64,000 bases of DNA from an uncultured Verrucomicrobiae bacterium (GCA_963706955.1 CAVPOC010000003.1:448001-512000); one strand, 5' to 3'; positions 56,753 through 64,000 are shown, counted from the stretch's first letter. Notes: generated by a model from the letters alone, not told the origin. Numbers and translations: made by a program.

Positions 56753-58858
56753 ATGCAAACGCCTCCGTGCAAGACTACCCTCGGCGAGCCCTATCCGCTC
56801 GGCGCTATTCCCTCGAAGGGCGGTGTAAATTTTTCGCTGTTCGCGCAACATGCTACGTCGGTGCAGTTGCTCTTATTCGAGAGTTATTCTGATTCCGTCC
56901 CGCAGCAGGTGGTCAACTTGCATCCGGTTCTGAATAAAACGTTTCATTATTGGCATGTCTTTGTCGAGGGAGTCAGTCCAGGGCAGCTCTACGCGTATCG
57001 ACTGGGTGGACCTTACGATCTTAGCCAGGGCTTTCGTTACAACCAGAATAAGGTCTTGCTCGATCCCTATTCACGCGGCGTGGTCTATGGGCGGAACTGG
57101 CGCCGCGATCTCGCCTGCGATGGTTCAGACAATTGTCAGAGCGTCATGAAAAGCCTCGTGGTGGACGCAGACATTTACGACTGGGAGGGCGTGGAAGGAC
57201 CCGACCTTCACCTTTCCGATTGCGTGATTTATGAACTGCACGTCCGCGGCTTTACGCAACATCCTTCTTCCGGAGTCGCCCACCCCGGGACCTTCAGTGG
57301 TTTGATCGAGAAGATTCCCTACCTACAGGAGCTTGGGGTTAATTGCGTTGAACTCATGCCCGTTCACCAGTTTGACTCGACAGAAAGTGCCGCCACTCAC
57401 CCCGAAACGGGCGAACGGCTTACCAACTACTGGGGCTACAACTCGATCTGCTTTTTCGCTCCACATCGCGGCTATTACACGGCCGATTGGGAGAAGATGG
57501 AATACCTGACAGGTTTTCGGGACCTCGTGAAGGCGCTTCACAAGGCGAACATCGAGATCATTCTCGATGTGGTTTTCAACCATACCAGCGAAAGTGACGA
57601 AACCGGTCCGACCATTTGCATGAGGGGAATAGACAACTCGGTCTATTACATGCTCGATCCAGACGACCGCTCACGCTACCTAAACTACACGGGGACCGGC
57701 AACACGGTGAACTGCAATCATCCCGCGGTGCGCCGGATGATCCTCGAGTGCCTGCGCTACTGGGTCGGCGTGATGCACGTGGACGGTTTTCGTTTCGATC
57801 TTGCCTCCATTCTCTCCCGCGACGAACTAGGCCGCCCGATGCAAAATCCTCCGCTCCTTTGGGAAATCGAATCCGATCCCGTTCTTCACAACGCCAAAAT
57901 CTTTGCCGAAGCCTGGGACGCGGCCGGGCTGTATCAAGTCGGAGGCTTCCCGGGCGAACGATGGGCCGAATGGAACGGGCGCTATCGCGACGACGTCCGA
58001 AGATTCATCCGAGGCGACGAAGGACTCGCCGGGACAGTCGCCTCGCGAGTGGCCGGAAGTGCCGACCTCTACCAGCATCTCGCCCGTGCGCCTTATCAGA
58101 GCATCAACTTCGTGACCTGCCATGACGGCTTCACCCTCAACGACCTCGTTTCTTACAACCGGAAGCACAACCTTGCGAACGGCGAAGGTGACCGGGATGG
58201 ATCGAATGACAATCTTAGCTCAAACTATGGAGTAGAGGGTCCCACGCAGGACCAACAGATCGATTCCCTCAGGTTGCGTCAGATCAAGAATTTTGCTGCC
58301 ATCCTGCTGCTTTCGCAGGGAACACCGATGCTGCTGGCAGGCGATGAGTTTCGCCGCACGCAACGAGGAAACAACAACGCCTATTGCCAGGATAACGAGA
58401 CGAGTTGGCTAGATTGGACGCTACTGGAAAAGCACCGGGAGTTGTTTCGCTTTTTCAAGCTAATGATCAAGTTTCGCTTGAGGCATCCCGCTCTAAGACG
58501 AAGACAATACTACTGGGGGGAGAAAGATCGCCACGGCTGTCCCGAAATCGCCTGGCACGGCGTCCAACTCGAGAACCCCGACTGGGGCCATCAATCACAC
58601 TCTTTCGCGTTCACCTTGTCCGGCTTCGCAGTCGACGCGGACATCCACGTGATAATCAGCGCTTATACTGAAGCTCTCCGCTTCGAACTGCCACAGCCGC
58701 AACGCGGAGAGTGCTGGTTTCGCGCGATCGATACATCGTTGCCTTCTCCTGACGATGTTGCCGATGACGGAGAGGAAACCGCAATCCACGAAGCGACCTA
58801 TCAACTCGCGCCTCGATCTGTCGCCGTCCTGATTCAGCCGCCCTCTACCGCAGTATAA
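56753..58858 (+). CDS. glgX: Glycogen debranching enzyme (isoamylase)
   Basis: G.PYPLGA, IYELHVRGFT, NYWGY, DVVFNHT, DGFRFDLA, AEAWD, NFVTCHDGFTL, GNNNAYCQDN. Confidence 0.95.
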   Translation: MQTPPCKTTLGEPYPLGAIPSKGGVNFSLFAQHATSVQLLLFESYSDSVPQQVVNLHPVLNKTFHYWHVFVEGVSPGQLYAYRLGGPYDLSQGFRYNQNKVLLDPYSRGVVYGRNWRRDLACDGSDNCQSVMKSLVVDADIYDWEGVEGPDLHLSDCVIYELHVRGFTQHPSSGVAHPGTFSGLIEKIPYLQELGVNCVELMPVHQFDSTESAATHPETGERLTNYWGYNSICFFAPHRGYYTADWEKMEYLTGFRDLVKALHKANIEIILDVVFNHTSESDETGPTICMRGIDNSVYYMLDPDDRSRYLNYTGTGNTVNCNHPAVRRMILECLRYWVGVMHVDGFRFDLASILSRDELGRPMQNPPLLWEIESDPVLHNAKIFAEAWDAAGLYQVGGFPGERWAEWNGRYRDDVRRFIRGDEGLAGTVASRVAGSADLYQHLARAPYQSINFVTCHDGFTLNDLVSYNRKHNLANGEGDRDGSNDNLSSNYGVEGPTQDQQIDSLRLRQIKNFAAILLLSQGTPMLLAGDEFRRTQRGNNNAYCQDNETSWLDWTLLEKHRELFRFFKLMIKFRLRHPALRRRQYYWGEKDRHGCPEIAWHGVQLENPDWGHQSHSFAFTLSGFAVDADIHVIISAYTEALRFELPQPQRGECWFRAIDTSLPSPDDVADDGEETAIHEATYQLAPRSVAVLIQPPSTAV

Positions 58859-60504: not shown

Positions 60505-62646
60505 ATGAAGCATTTTCGAGTTCTTCTCGCGCAATCGTGCGGACTGACGGCTGCCTTAGCTGTGGCGACGAGTTCCTGGAGCGCGCCGGTCGATGAAGCA
60601 AAGGCTGAGGGAAAGACGCCCGCCGACTTCCCAAAGATCACCGAGGACGTCTTTAAGCCAATGGATCAAGGGGCGATTATTGGGGAATTGACCGAAGAGG
60701 AAATTCGCGGGCGGAATACCTGGAACCTGTGGGCCGCGGGCAATCAGCATTTTTGGGACAGCGTAGCTCGTAATAGCTACGGACTTATGGATCTACTTAA
60801 GGCGCTCGACAATCGCAAGTATCCACGCGGAGAGCGTTTCAAGACGCTCGGGCTGGTCAATCAACCCGGCTTTCGGGCTGCGACGAAGCCTGACGAATAT
60901 GGCCTTTGGCTAGACGAACCGACCGAACCCGAACCAGCGGGCATCGACGAAAAAGTCTATGGAAAGCCGACCGGCGTTCTCGGTTTCAGGTTGTTCCCGA
61001 ATCCGGATTTCGACAGAGCCGCTCGCAAGAAATGGGATGGCGAGCGCTTTATGAACGACCCGAAGTACTATAACGATAACAAGCTCGTCCGACCGTATCG
61101 CGTCGGGGTGTCGTGCGGTTCGTGCCATATTGCCCCCAACCCGATCAATCCGCCGGAGGATCCCGAAAATCCGAAATGGGAGAACCTCGCCTCAGCCATT
61201 GGCAACCAGTACATAAGCGAAGGCCGAGTCTTCGCCTCCAACGTCGCCAAGGGGGGCCTCTTCTACGAAATGATTGAGGCGCAACCGCGCGGGACATCGG
61301 ATACCTCACGGATTGCCACCGATCACATCAACAATCCGAATACGATCAACGCCATCTTTCTCCTTGCTGAACGCGAAAGAATTGCTGTGAACGAGCAAAT
61401 GGCCGGAGGCACGCTCGCCTTACCGGGAGAGAAGGCCACCATGCCGGTTCCACACATCTTGAAGGACGGAGCGGATTCTGTCGGCGTGCCGGGTGCCACC
61501 ATCCGGGTATACATAAATATCGGGATGTTCTCCGAGTATTGGCTGACGCTTCACAATCGCCTGATCGGTCTCACGCCGCAGAGTCCGTTTGACGTCGCAA
61601 CCGCTCAGAAGAATTCTGTTTTCTGGCGCGCGACCGAGGAGCGCCTAGGCGATATCGCCGCCTTCTTTCGCAGGCTGCACCCGTTTCATCTCAAAGACGC
61701 GCCAGGCGGCAACGAGCTAATTGCAAGTGACGAAACGGCGATGACTCGCGGCAAGATCGTCTTTGCCGAAAACTGCGCTAGCTGCCATTCGAGCAAGCAA
61801 CCGCCGGCCAACGTTGATCCGCACTCAGGAGAAGGTAGGGCATGGTTCCGGGCCGAAGTCGTCAAACCCGATTTTCTCGAGGACAATTTCCTTTCCACAG
61901 ATCGCCGGTATCCGATTTCCAAAATCGAAACCAATTCGGCGCGCGCGTTTGGAACGAATGCCCAGGCCGGCCATGTTTGGGACAACTTCTCCTCGAAAAC
62001 CTACAAGGATCTCGCCAAAGTCGAGGAGCAGGAATGGTACAATCCTTTTGACGAGAACAACCGCATCAAATTCAAACCCAAGGGCGGTGGTCCCGGTTAC
62101 TATCGCGTGCCCTCGCTGGTCAGTATCTGGACTTCGGCGCCGTTCTTCAACAACAACGCTCTTGGAGAGTTCACCGGCGATCCCTCAGTCGCAGGGCGCA
62201 TAAAGGCATTCAACGATGCAGTCGAAAAGCTCCTTTGGCCCGAAAGGCGACTCGGCAAAGACTCGATCTGGCGCACGCAAAACGAGTGTGCGCTCAGCCT
62301 CCGCAAGGAATTTGTGCCACTGGCGCTCCGTCCCTTAGCGGACGCTGATGGGTGGATTCGCATTGGGCCAATTCCGAAAGGCACTCCCATCAATCTGCTG
62401 GCGAATCTTGAGCCGGACTTCAAGCAACTCGTTGTGCTCAAAATCAAGATCAGCAAGGCGTTGGCAAAAATCCATGCACTGAATCTCTCACCGGAAGCCT
62501 CAACCGCCGAGCTCGTGAAGCTTGTTCCCGAGCTTCTCGCCGCCAACAAATGCCCCGACTTTATCGAAGACAAGGGCCACTATTTTGGAGACACCCTGCC
62601 TGACGAGGACAAGCTCGCGCTGATCGAGTTTCTAAAAACCATGTAA
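60505..62646 (+). CDS. Secreted dihaem c-type cytochrome, RoxA/MauG-like fold
   Basis: Signal peptide; CGSCH (61114-61128) and CASCH (61774-61788); YRVPSL..IW..APF; C-terminal GH.FG..L.D.DK.ALIEFLKT. Confidence 0.8.
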   Translation: MKHFRVLLAQSCGLTAALAVATSSWSAPVDEAKAEGKTPADFPKITEDVFKPMDQGAIIGELTEEEIRGRNTWNLWAAGNQHFWDSVARNSYGLMDLLKALDNRKYPRGERFKTLGLVNQPGFRAATKPDEYGLWLDEPTEPEPAGIDEKVYGKPTGVLGFRLFPNPDFDRAARKKWDGERFMNDPKYYNDNKLVRPYRVGVSCGSCHIAPNPINPPEDPENPKWENLASAIGNQYISEGRVFASNVAKGGLFYEMIEAQPRGTSDTSRIATDHINNPNTINAIFLLAERERIAVNEQMAGGTLALPGEKATMPVPHILKDGADSVGVPGATIRVYINIGMFSEYWLTLHNRLIGLTPQSPFDVATAQKNSVFWRATEERLGDIAAFFRRLHPFHLKDAPGGNELIASDETAMTRGKIVFAENCASCHSSKQPPANVDPHSGEGRAWFRAEVVKPDFLEDNFLSTDRRYPISKIETNSARAFGTNAQAGHVWDNFSSKTYKDLAKVEEQEWYNPFDENNRIKFKPKGGGPGYYRVPSLVSIWTSAPFFNNNALGEFTGDPSVAGRIKAFNDAVEKLLWPERRLGKDSIWRTQNECALSLRKEFVPLALRPLADADGWIRIGPIPKGTPINLLANLEPDFKQLVVLKIKISKALAKIHALNLSPEASTAELVKLVPELLAANKCPDFIEDKGHYFGDTLPDEDKLALIEFLKTM

Positions 62647-62702
62647 AGCCGACCCGCAGGTATCGCAATCAATTTGGCAAATCTCCACACACAGGCACAG
62701 CA

Positions 62703-63158
62703 ATGACTATCGCCGAACTCAAGAAACTGTCGCAGCAGGAACTCGATGACCTTTTCCGTCAAAAGCCAGCCGGCCCGATTCCAAATGGTGAAGCGAAGGG
62801 AACTGCGCTCGTCCTTCCGGGCACGGCGGTCACCAACATTATCGCCGACCTCATCCGAATCAAAATTTGGAAAGGCAAAGTCTTCGAGAGAGATGCCAAG
62901 AACTCGGATCGCGGCGTTCTCAAGAACAAGATCCTTCCACTCGGCCACCAGGCGATCGAAGCAAATGTTTACAAGGACAAGAGCTGGTTCGATGGCAAGG
63001 AGTGCGTCGTCCTCGATTACTCGAAGACCTCTTTGATCGCGAAAAAAATCCGGGACGAGATTCGGGAGATTCAGCCCGGTTTCTACCTGGGAATTGTCTA
63101 CTGGGGCAAGAAACGCACCATCGGCTTTGCGTTGGAATTCCCTACTTCACGCACTTAG
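62703..63158 (+). CDS. Conserved hypothetical protein (151 aa)
   Basis: Well-formed ORF between the dihaem and catalase-like genes; motifs ELDDLF, WKGKVF, SWFDG..C.VLDY, IRDEIRE..PG.YLG. Confidence 0.8.
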   Translation: MTIAELKKLSQQELDDLFRQKPAGPIPNGEAKGTALVLPGTAVTNIIADLIRIKIWKGKVFERDAKNSDRGVLKNKILPLGHQAIEANVYKDKSWFDGKECVVLDYSKTSLIAKKIRDEIREIQPGFYLGIVYWGKKRTIGFALEFPTSRT

Positions 63159-63197
63159 CCAGAAGCGCTCCGCCAGATCCGAGTTGATTTTTCCACC

Positions 63198-64000
63198 TTG
63201 AGTTCAAATCCGAGTCGCTCAGCGCCCCGAGCAAACACAGGCTCCGCGTTTTTGAATCGCTTGAGCGACTTTTTTACGCGGATGCTGCAGCTCGAGCGCC
63301 GCTTCGATCCGTTTATCCGTCCCGCTTTCGACGCTCTCTTACGCGATCCGATTGCCGAGATGACGACGGCACTTATTAACCGTAAGCGGCCAAACGACGG
63401 CCTGAAGATCGCCGAGGAAAAGACAATGCCTGGCGAAGAGGAATACCTCGACTCGATCGTTTCAAGCTTCACCAAGCAGATGCATCTGCTGTGGAAATCG
63501 GGAGCGTTCGAGCGAGGTGGCAATACCAAGACACATGGAATCGTGCGGGGTGAATTTATCGTTCACCAAGACCTTCCGCCAGCGCTGCGGCACGGCATTT
63601 ACGCTGAGCCGAAAACTTATCGCGCCTGGGTGCGCTTCTCCGGTCCAGGACCCTACATCACTCCAGATATCGAAGATGTTGGTTTCATGAGCATCAGCAT
63701 CAAACTCATGGGAGTGCCCGGGCCGAAGCTAATGGACGATGAAAAGTTTACCCAGGATATGTTCGGCGTTTCCACACCAACTTTCGTGACCCCGGACACC
63801 AAAGCTAATGCCCAGTTGCAAATTGAGAGCGTAAAGAACGCACAAATCTTCTACTTTCTTAACTTTCGCCGGCCCCACGTGCTGGACCTGATCATGCAGT
63901 CCTTGTGGATCAAGACGCAGAGCAGTCCTTTGGAAGCTCCCTACTTCAGCTGCGTGCCCTATTTGCTCGGCGAAGGGCAGGCGATGCAATATTCAATTTG
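63198..64000 (+). CDS. Catalase-like haem-fold protein (partial, runs off window; not in the ORF track)
   Basis: Open frame from TTG 63198 to window end: RGGNTKTHGIVRGEF, LRHGIY, AWVRFS, IKLMGVPG.KL, TQD, PTF, SPLEAPYFSCVPYLLG...MQYS. Confidence 0.82.
   Translation, partial: MSSNPSRSAPRANTGSAFLNRLSDFFTRMLQLERRFDPFIRPAFDALLRDPIAEMTTALINRKRPNDGLKIAEEKTMPGEEEYLDSIVSSFTKQMHLLWKSGAFERGGNTKTHGIVRGEFIVHQDLPPALRHGIYAEPKTYRAWVRFSGPGPYITPDIEDVGFMSISIKLMGVPGPKLMDDEKFTQDMFGVSTPTFVTPDTKANAQLQIESVKNAQIFYFLNFRRPHVLDLIMQSLWIKTQSSPLEAPYFSCVPYLLGEGQAMQYSI

Follow-up and report, generated by a model that had tools for sequence, protein, structure and literature searches.

A conserved, apparently undescribed five-gene operon of soil bacteria combining a RoxA-like di-haem protein, a catalase-fold protein and a DyP-type peroxidase

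What does a soil bacterium do with an exported-type di-haem c protein, a small barrel protein and a catalase-fold protein that are encoded one after the other? The question is raised by the end of a stretch of 64,000 nucleotides (the window, genome C3:448001-512000) from an uncultured Verrucomicrobiae bacterium (GCA_963706955.1, CAVPOC010000003.1), in which a reading made without database searches (the sequence-only reading) had pointed to these three genes, here called P1, P2 and P3. They belong to a soil-bacterial operon of five genes, P1 to P5, which is conserved, real and apparently undescribed. For its function we tentatively favor, at somewhat less than an even chance, a lipid hydroperoxide relay, in which P1 would oxygenate a membrane lipid outside and proteins at the inner face would convert the resulting hydroperoxide.

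The sequence-only reading had described three co-directional genes with gaps of 56 bp (P1-P2) and 39 bp (P2-P3), a P1 protein of about 713 amino acids with two CxxCH motifs some 220 residues apart and a GH.FG...ALIEFLKT C-terminus, and an operon probably running past the window, all of which proved correct (P1 has 713 amino acids, motifs 220 residues apart and the C-terminus GHYFG...ALIEFLKTM with H692). The stop codon of P3 lies 424 bases beyond the window end; the gene was completed and two more were added, P4, which begins 5 bp after P3, and P5, which overlaps P4 by 4 bp (ATGA) (Table 1). The next genes downstream of P5 lie on the opposite strand, and tblastn found no second copy of any of the five genes in the genome. 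P3 starts with TTG (63198-63200), and a TTG or GTG start was seen in nine of nine orthologues inspected; with such a non-ATG start its translation may be limited. RNA-labelled soil and rhizosphere runs (four of nine used) yielded short contigs of related strains over parts of P1, P2 and P3, three listed pieces spanning the P1-P2 gap; these contigs, with small word shares and no silent-stretch control, are no evidence of transcription.

Conservation was followed in a genome-collection scan on P1, which gave 76 loci (best 80 of 104 stretches), and in a metagenome scan on P3 (best 80 of 576 confirmed stretches, many of the contigs short); by keeping the best 80 both scans are biased to close relatives. 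The nearest P1 loci (85-93% identity) are from Verrucomicrobia metagenome-assembled genomes, Terrimicrobiaceae or uncultured Verrucomicrobiae. Of the 71 other loci that extend 600 bp or more downstream, 70 have P2 directly after P1. Of 53 loci that extend 5 kb or more, 34 hold P1 to P5 complete and in unchanged order; the remaining 19 hold P1 and P2 only, with no partial sets. P1, P2 and P3 co-occur widely in other genomes. P3 was not found elsewhere in genomes with a P3-less P1 locus (nine of nine searched, incomplete assemblies; a genome with P3 in the locus matched).

Seen from P3, the metagenome loci contain P4 in 62, P2 in 50, P5 in 50 and P1 in 33 of the 80, in many gene orders, together with GMC oxidoreductase genes in 26, PF03098 genes in 6 and patatin-like lipase genes in 6. 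In the 17 well-flanked P3 loci (6 kb or more upstream, 5.5 kb or more downstream) the genes P2, P4 and P5 are always present, P1 in 12, GMC in 10 and PF03098 in 4 (3 without P1); two have neither P1 nor PF03098. P4 stands directly before P5 in 42 of the 47 loci in which both were labelled, and by match coordinates the two are adjacent in the other five too, which were missed via over-long starts of open reading frames (ORFs). What is stable is the P2-P3-P4-P5 core, which P1 joins more often than any other partner, and P1+P2 can stand alone; the three-gene unit of the sequence-only reading did not hold up.

The PF03098 gene that was tested is closest to plant fatty-acid alpha-dioxygenases (4kvj, E 3e-124), and all six PF03098 genes near P3 have a YR(L/M)H motif. 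Patatin-like lipases adjoin relatives of P1 or P3 not only in the six metagenome loci but also on rhizobial plasmids. The neighbors that had been proposed for a check were found in part: GMC and PF03098 haem peroxidase-family genes recur beside P3, and a lipoxygenase was not matched in this genome (92.5% complete, controls silent). P3 is patchily distributed: among 150 other genomes of the phylum, one had any match, at 35% identity. In a thin sampling of the phylum of genome G151, two genomes out of 251 had P1, one of them the centre genome.

P1, on its model, is a member of the superfamily of RoxA, MauG and bacterial cytochrome c peroxidases (CCPs), as had been suspected, in a subfamily of its own outside the RoxA, RoxB and NF040606 families. 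The model (129 sequences; pLDDT 93, pTM 0.91) has RoxA (4b2n) as sole Foldseek match at E<=0.001 (1e-6; TM 0.34-0.37), followed by MauG, BthA and CCPs. VIA-align gave Z 10.8 for RoxA (371 residues, root-mean-square deviation (rmsd) 4.6), 10.9 for MauG (254 residues) and 12.4 for a hydrazine synthase chain (239 residues); over RoxA, MauG, CCPs and this chain Z was 8-12. From the family libraries NF040606, which we take to cover PA2077 and PA2078, scored 35.2 bits (cut-off 150; E 8e-9), and the NCBIfam models of RoxA, RoxB and RoxC 12.5, 15.7 and 12.5 bits (cut-offs 1000, 900 and 900), their ends matching residues 689-713 only, and weakly. Single-sequence and narrow-profile PDB and Pfam searches of P1 to P4 gave motif-level matches or none. 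The family counts 5091 matches among 8000 scored and the clade 508 clusters at 50% identity (E<=1e-30); close relatives carry no functional name, as the sequence-only reading had supposed. A second, more divergent P1 paralogue (37-46%) lies 2-8 kb upstream of P1 in four loci (L024, L025, L039, L061).

According to PMC6311187, RoxA has a five-coordinate haem 1 (H195) and a bis-His haem 2, and expression of RoxA-type proteins in E. coli failed. Since H208, H428 and H692 of P1 are near-invariant and no highly conserved Met follows haem 2, P1 fits this layout, and we infer by analogy that haem 1 is the five-coordinate catalytic haem and haem 2 is bis-His. The MauG motif (PYxHNGSVP) reads APFFNNNALG in P1, with Asn549 at the position of the His, which is kept in 102 of 123 P1-family rows. 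K320, kept in 98 of 129 rows, belongs to an LKDG motif that is a possible stand-in for WDG; hhalign did not align the two. Candidates for distal residues of P1 are R334 and N338. In the hhalign comparison of P1 with another RoxA-like subfamily (see below) the N-terminal half did not align, and equivalents of F317 and W302 could not be assigned.

Judged by eye and hydropathy, P1 begins with what resembles a Sec signal, having a basic start, then a hydrophobic stretch and SSWSA-P; among its relatives many have a lipobox Cys, and many are lipoproteins or have extra transmembrane helices. Two PF01578 cytochrome c assembly genes are present in the genome. Two rhizobial plasmids (L078:9990-22342, L079:9966-22343) carry an operon for an old yellow enzyme, two other di-haem proteins, a small membrane protein, a P1 relative (35-38%), a GMC protein and a patatin; no P2-P5 are annotated nearby.

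P3, judged from its sequence, has the catalase superfamily fold with a haem site of the Tyr-ligated type. Pfam alone gave no match, and identity to annotated catalase-family proteins is 28-36%. A profile of 10 sequences matched catalases and M. avium MAP2744c (3e4w) at E ~1e-9, which bears out the earlier assignment to the catalase fold, and coral cAOS, an allene oxide synthase akin to catalases, at 6e-6; with a narrow profile coral cAOS gave the sole PDB matches, weak ones (E 0.12). R106, R146, R379, Y383 and R390 are present in 35 of 35 orthologues and in all 10 alignment rows. The relatives have the motif R-x-x-H-x-K-x-H-G, P3 the motif R-G-G-N-T-K-T-(H/Q)-G, and RGGNTK was seen in all 76 metagenome P3 ORFs with a motif match.

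The haem set of cAOS is R64, R102, Y353 and R360, and its distal His starts the cleavage of the hydroperoxide (PMC5617202). At the distal Thr-His P3 has Gly108-Asn109, and at the distal Asn Val191, each in 35 of 35 orthologues. With the distal His and Asn both replaced, P3 is neither a catalase nor a Thr-His enzyme, and the suggested kinship in function with cAOS is not borne out. The pair T112-H113 was tried as the Thr-His of cAOS and rejected: it lies out of register by four residues, and 16 of 35 orthologues have Gln instead of H113. CYP74 enzymes have an invariant Asn over the haem that splits hydroperoxides, and by this analogy a homolysis of hydroperoxides by P3 is plausible. No export signal was found on P3. 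On pNGR234a of S. fredii NGR234 (L081:9944-15997) a catalase-family protein that keeps the distal His adjoins a di-haem peroxidase-family gene and a patatin gene.

P2 has no family match in Pfam and NCBIfam-type libraries, and PF14231 and PF14232 gave none at E<=1. Its model (106 sequences; pLDDT 83) is an eight-stranded antiparallel barrel, with Tcur_1030 (4mve) as best structural match (Foldseek 7e-4; Z 11.2, rmsd 3.7, 128 residues), followed by lipocalins and avidins (Z 5-6) and fatty-acid-binding proteins. In the Atlas the nearest named cluster is GXWXG/DUF4334 (score 0.86, 160 of 256 features), a relationship that we treat as a lead only; no function was found for Tcur_1030 or for GXWXG/DUF4334 proteins. 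K59, N75, Y90, D105, Y106, R117, D118, E119 and R121 are invariant, as is Trp56, and with these charged and aromatic residues P2 may have a catalytic role. P2 is duplicated in tandem after P1 in L015, L016, L017 and L073, all of them loci without P3-P5.

The P2 domain also occurs in fusions, which were counted among the best 120 of 374 longer relatives: with two-CxxCH proteins (71), GMC (13), full-length P4 (11; Streptomyces and Arthrobacter where named), P3 (2), patatin (2), and P450, PF03098 and a partial P1-family protein (1 each), and in a few cases with unrelated TIR, caspase or ParA-type domains. Each of the two P2-P3 fusions is represented by one sequence, in one case with an apparently lost stop codon, and both are given little weight. 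One fusion (P0396) has a double P2 domain. The di-haem partners form a different RoxA-like subfamily that is homologous to P1 (hhalign 97.5%, E 6e-12), and in 70 of the 71 di-haem fusions the P2 domain precedes a hydrophobic segment, which is followed by the haem domain. Because c haems mature outside, this order would put P2 in the cytoplasm; no export signal was found on P2 itself. A location on the cytoplasmic side is likely and argues against the role of periplasmic carrier for P1 that could be imagined for P2. Of the extracytoplasmic system that had been proposed, P1 with its signal-like N-terminus remains; P2 and P3 drop out.

P5 is a DyP-type peroxidase that scores below the family cut-offs (TIGR01413 81.6 bits, cut-off 100.5, E 6e-23; PF20628 19 versus 20 bits). 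D168, H327 and R375 are invariant in 54 rows and are presumably the Asp of the GxxDG motif, the proximal His and the distal Arg, respectively. No export signal was found on P5. P4 has no family or PDB match, and the Atlas gave unnamed clusters only; it consists of two weakly related halves (E 4e-5) with a strong, Pro-rich hydrophobic segment at about 212-240. None of the 55 plasmid records matching P4 covers 80% of it. Plasmids of Pararhizobium and Novosphingobium (L083:7886-12157, L084:7727-12058) encode fusions of about 1430 amino acids in which the C half of P4 stands between a P450 and a DyP domain, and in four metagenome loci (L109:4130-5053, L111, L126, L133) an ORF of 290-307 amino acids without Pfam match follows P5.

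Co-folding predicts that P4 and P5 form a heteromer. The score was 0.89 (best of three controls 0.00), the runs agreed in at least 94% of the contacts, and the partner pLDDT was at least 90; the 0.89 mark is reached by 116 of 157 solved and by 2 of 215 mismatched pairs, a rough calibration since our own alignments were used. If P4 is itself a DyP-like barrel, the result may partly reflect known oligomers. In the model both halves of P4 touch P5, and the hydrophobic segment between them would therefore be a re-entrant anchor. A description of a DyP heteromer with a P4-like partner was not found in the literature.

Table 1. Positions of the five genes and of residues discussed in the text (P1, P2 and P3 in window numbering unless marked C3; P4 and P5 in genome C3 numbering)
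Feature	Position	Strand	Length or support
P1, exported-type di-haem c protein	60505-62646	+	713 aa from ATG
P1 haem 1 motif CGSCH, residues 204-208	61114-61128	+	sequence; H208 in 125/126 aligned rows
P1 haem 2 motif CASCH, residues 424-428	61774-61788	+	sequence; H428 in 128/129 rows
P1 His692, probable second axial ligand of haem 2 (RoxA H641 equivalent)	62578-62580	+	118/122 rows
P2, lipocalin-like barrel protein	62703-63158	+	151 aa
P3, catalase-fold protein	63198-64000, open at window end; whole gene C3:511198-512424	+	408 aa
P3 Asn109, at catalase/cAOS distal His site	63522-63524	+	35/35 orthologues
P3 Val191, at catalase distal Asn site	63768-63770	+	35/35 orthologues
P4, membrane protein, no known family	C3:512430-513731, beyond window		433 aa
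P5, DyP-type peroxidase	C3:513728-515266, beyond window		512 aa

How could these five proteins work together? A precedent is P. aeruginosa, in which PA2077 oxygenates oleate and PA2078 isomerizes its hydroperoxide, both being large periplasmic RoxA-like di-haem enzymes (PMC4496055). In the relay that we propose, P1 would be exported, loaded with two c haems and act at haem 1 as a cofactor-free dioxygenase, like RoxA and PA2077, on an unsaturated fatty acid, or a lipid like it, outside the inner membrane. The product would reach the inner leaflet, where P3, with its Tyr-ligated haem, would rearrange or cleave the hydroperoxide via O-O homolysis, as an isomerase or a lyase; lacking an acid-base His, it cannot run normal catalase chemistry. 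P4 would tether the DyP P5 to the membrane, and P5 would reduce or further oxidize the lipid product, whereas P2 might bind a lipophilic intermediate or act via its invariant polar residues. That the substrate is lipid-like is our best guess, by analogy. The relay is suggested most strongly by the PA2077 precedent, by the alpha-dioxygenase-like gene of some clusters without P1, and by the patatin neighbors, the lipocalin-like P2 and the membrane anchor.

Several observations weigh against the relay. Its substrate side is a proposal for these proteins, made by analogy. P1 is far from the PA2077-type model (35 versus 150 bits) and from the RoxA-type models (12-16 versus 900-1000 bits), and the His of its MauG motif is replaced by Asn549. 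P3 lacks the His that starts the cleavage in cAOS and could be a haem protein of weak or no catalytic activity. The 19 loci with P1+P2 and without P3-P5 show that the coupling is not obligatory, and P1 and PF03098, occurring together in two of the six PF03098 loci, are not strictly alternative. GMC oxidoreductases outnumber the lipase and dioxygenase neighbors and fit an H2O2-fed aromatic pathway equally well. In this genome (92.5% complete) there was no match to a lipoxygenase or to PF03098 (controls silent), nor to the patatin or GMC queries of the cluster type.

Of the other explanations we regard as unlikely, if the best placed, a peroxide-defence operon, in which P1 would be a periplasmic peroxidase and P3 and the tethered DyP would remove H2O2 or lipid peroxides without making a deliberate product. 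It would account for three peroxidase-type folds standing together and for the Z score of P1, which is tied with those of CCPs and MauG. It would also suit a genome in which KatG was not found (92.5% complete; positive controls matched) nor a typical catalase, the sole catalase-family gene elsewhere being a small one (C14:60575-61456). It does not account for the loss of both distal catalase residues in P3, nor for a P1 of twice the size of a CCP and nearest to RoxA by Foldseek. The distribution is patchy, and the neighbors are of the dioxygenase, lipase and GMC types; clustering of the neighbors gave no recurrent family of stress-gene type.

Ranked next, and unlikely too, is the oxidation of a hydrophobic compound other than a lipid, such as a plant aromatic, a terpenoid or a secondary metabolite. 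DyPs act on aromatics; the GMC enzyme would supply H2O2 or aldehyde chemistry, and P2, whose invariant residues exceed the needs of a passive carrier, would be a cofactor-free lyase or cyclase. The frequency of GMC genes (26 of 80 loci, 10 of the 17 well-flanked ones), the 13 P2-GMC fusions and the P450-P4(C half)-DyP fusions all speak for such a pathway. A cluster-type GMC is, however, not matched in this genome, P5, on which no export signal was found, is by prediction tethered to the membrane, and the alpha-dioxygenase-like and patatin neighbors point to acyl chains.

It is improbable that P1+P2 have one job and P3-P4-P5 another, the two modules being merely clustered. The 19 loci of P1+P2 only would then need no explanation, nor would the absence of P1 from 5 of the 17 well-flanked P3 loci; yet the set re-forms although the gene order is shuffled among loci, and the P2 domain bridges both halves through its fusions with P4, P3 and di-haem proteins.

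We consider it very improbable that P1 modifies proteins in the manner of MauG or MbnH, with P2 as protein substrate or docking partner, in spite of the position of P2 directly after P1 in 70 of 71 loci, the tie of the P1 fold with MauG and the invariant Trp56 of P2. P2 has no export signal and lies across the hydrophobic segment in 70 of 71 di-haem fusions, and haem 2 of P1 appears to have the bis-His ligation of RoxA and not the Tyr-His ligation of MauG and BthA (PMC6405878). That P1 is a rubber (polyisoprene) oxygenase is the least probable of these explanations: RoxA is the best structural match and is alike in size and haem spacing (220 versus 199), but the scores are 12-16 bits against cut-offs of 900-1000, the TM values 0.34-0.37 and the identity 14-21%, and many P1 relatives are lipoproteins or have extra transmembrane helices, unlike a secreted polymer-cleaving enzyme.

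The operon could even encode a new bacterial pathway of oxylipin type across the inner membrane, comprising a new class of di-haem c lipid dioxygenases outside and, inside, a catalase fold without the His that carries out hydroperoxide chemistry with a distal Asn, a membrane-tethered DyP heteromer with P4 as a new protein family, and a catalytic lipocalin-like barrel, a possibility that we hold to be doubtful. Such a pathway would provide a physiological substrate for a large clade of DyPs and for hundreds of unnamed RoxA-like clusters in soil bacteria. Functions are known for few members of the RoxA/MauG/CCP superfamily, every further clade of which has yielded novel haem chemistry; the P1 clade is large and unnamed. 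Two novelties are open to direct testing, the Tyr-ligated catalase fold with an invariant Asn at the place of the distal His and a DyP for which a membrane-anchored partner of its own is predicted; the latter bears on the cellular role of bacterial DyPs. Bacteria related to the abundant uncultured Verrucomicrobia of soil have the system, and parts of it occur in cultured rhizobia and streptomycetes, which are amenable to study. In the full-text literature, outside of which lie most subscription papers and supplements, neither the operon nor P1, P2, P3 or P4 was found described; a supplementary neighborhood table could list the cluster.

Of the surroundings of the operon, three regions may be mentioned. 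A GMC-like flavoprotein with an N-terminal extension is encoded 3 kb after the operon (C3:518420-520219, minus strand); it was rejected as a cluster-type GMC because it did not match the cluster-type query. Further downstream, 8-16 kb past the window (C3:520605-528144), lie ORFs that by sequence resemble genes for a protein with a TIR domain, for an NTPase of the P-loop kind that has WD40-like repeats, and for a protein combining TIR-like and SLOG-like parts; together they may be a defence island. Within the window, at 56753-58858, a 701-amino acid ORF unrelated to the operon reads like the glycogen debranching enzyme GlgX.

Compared with known systems, all folds except that of P4 are known, and the logic resembles that of known pairs of a dioxygenase and a hydroperoxide enzyme. 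P5 shares with DyP-type peroxidases (TIGR01413) the GxxDG Asp, the proximal His and the distal Arg, and differs from them in scoring below the cut-off, in always following directly after P4 and in its predicted heteromer with P4. P2 has in common with 4mve and GXWXG/DUF4334 the eight-stranded lipocalin-like barrel with N-terminal helices, whereas identity to 4mve is 15-18%, with no Pfam match.

RoxA of Steroidobacter cummioxidans 35Y (4b2n) is a large exported di-haem c protein on a CCP core with a C-terminal GH motif; P1, which is probably exported, resembles it in size, core and GH motif, the CxxCH motifs being 199 residues apart in RoxA and 220 in P1. P1 differs by its low identity and TM value, by the exchange of the MauG-motif His for Asn and by being encoded in an operon with cytoplasmic and membrane partners. 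Coral cAOS (1u5u, 3dy5), coral cHPL and M. avium MAP2744c (3e4w) have, as has P3, a small catalase core, the haem Arg set and the proximal Tyr. R106, R146, Y383 and R390 of P3 correspond to R64, R102, Y353 and R360 of cAOS with equal spacing, T66-H67 of cAOS has become G108-N109 and N137 has become V191; unlike cAOS, P3 is not fused to a lipoxygenase.

Nostoc punctiforme reportedly has a linoleate 10S-dioxygenase and a separate catalase-related 10S-hydroperoxide lyase. As in the P3 clusters, of which some have an alpha-dioxygenase-like gene, a dioxygenase is paired there with a stand-alone catalase-fold enzyme; here, in contrast, a di-haem protein of the c type is the candidate dioxygenase, and there are three further proteins. 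The closest precedent for the chemistry proposed for P1 is PA2077/PA2078, in which a fatty-acid hydroperoxide is made and then rearranged. In P. aeruginosa the second step is catalyzed by a second di-haem protein, whereas in the operon described here it would fall to a catalase-fold protein and a DyP across the membrane.

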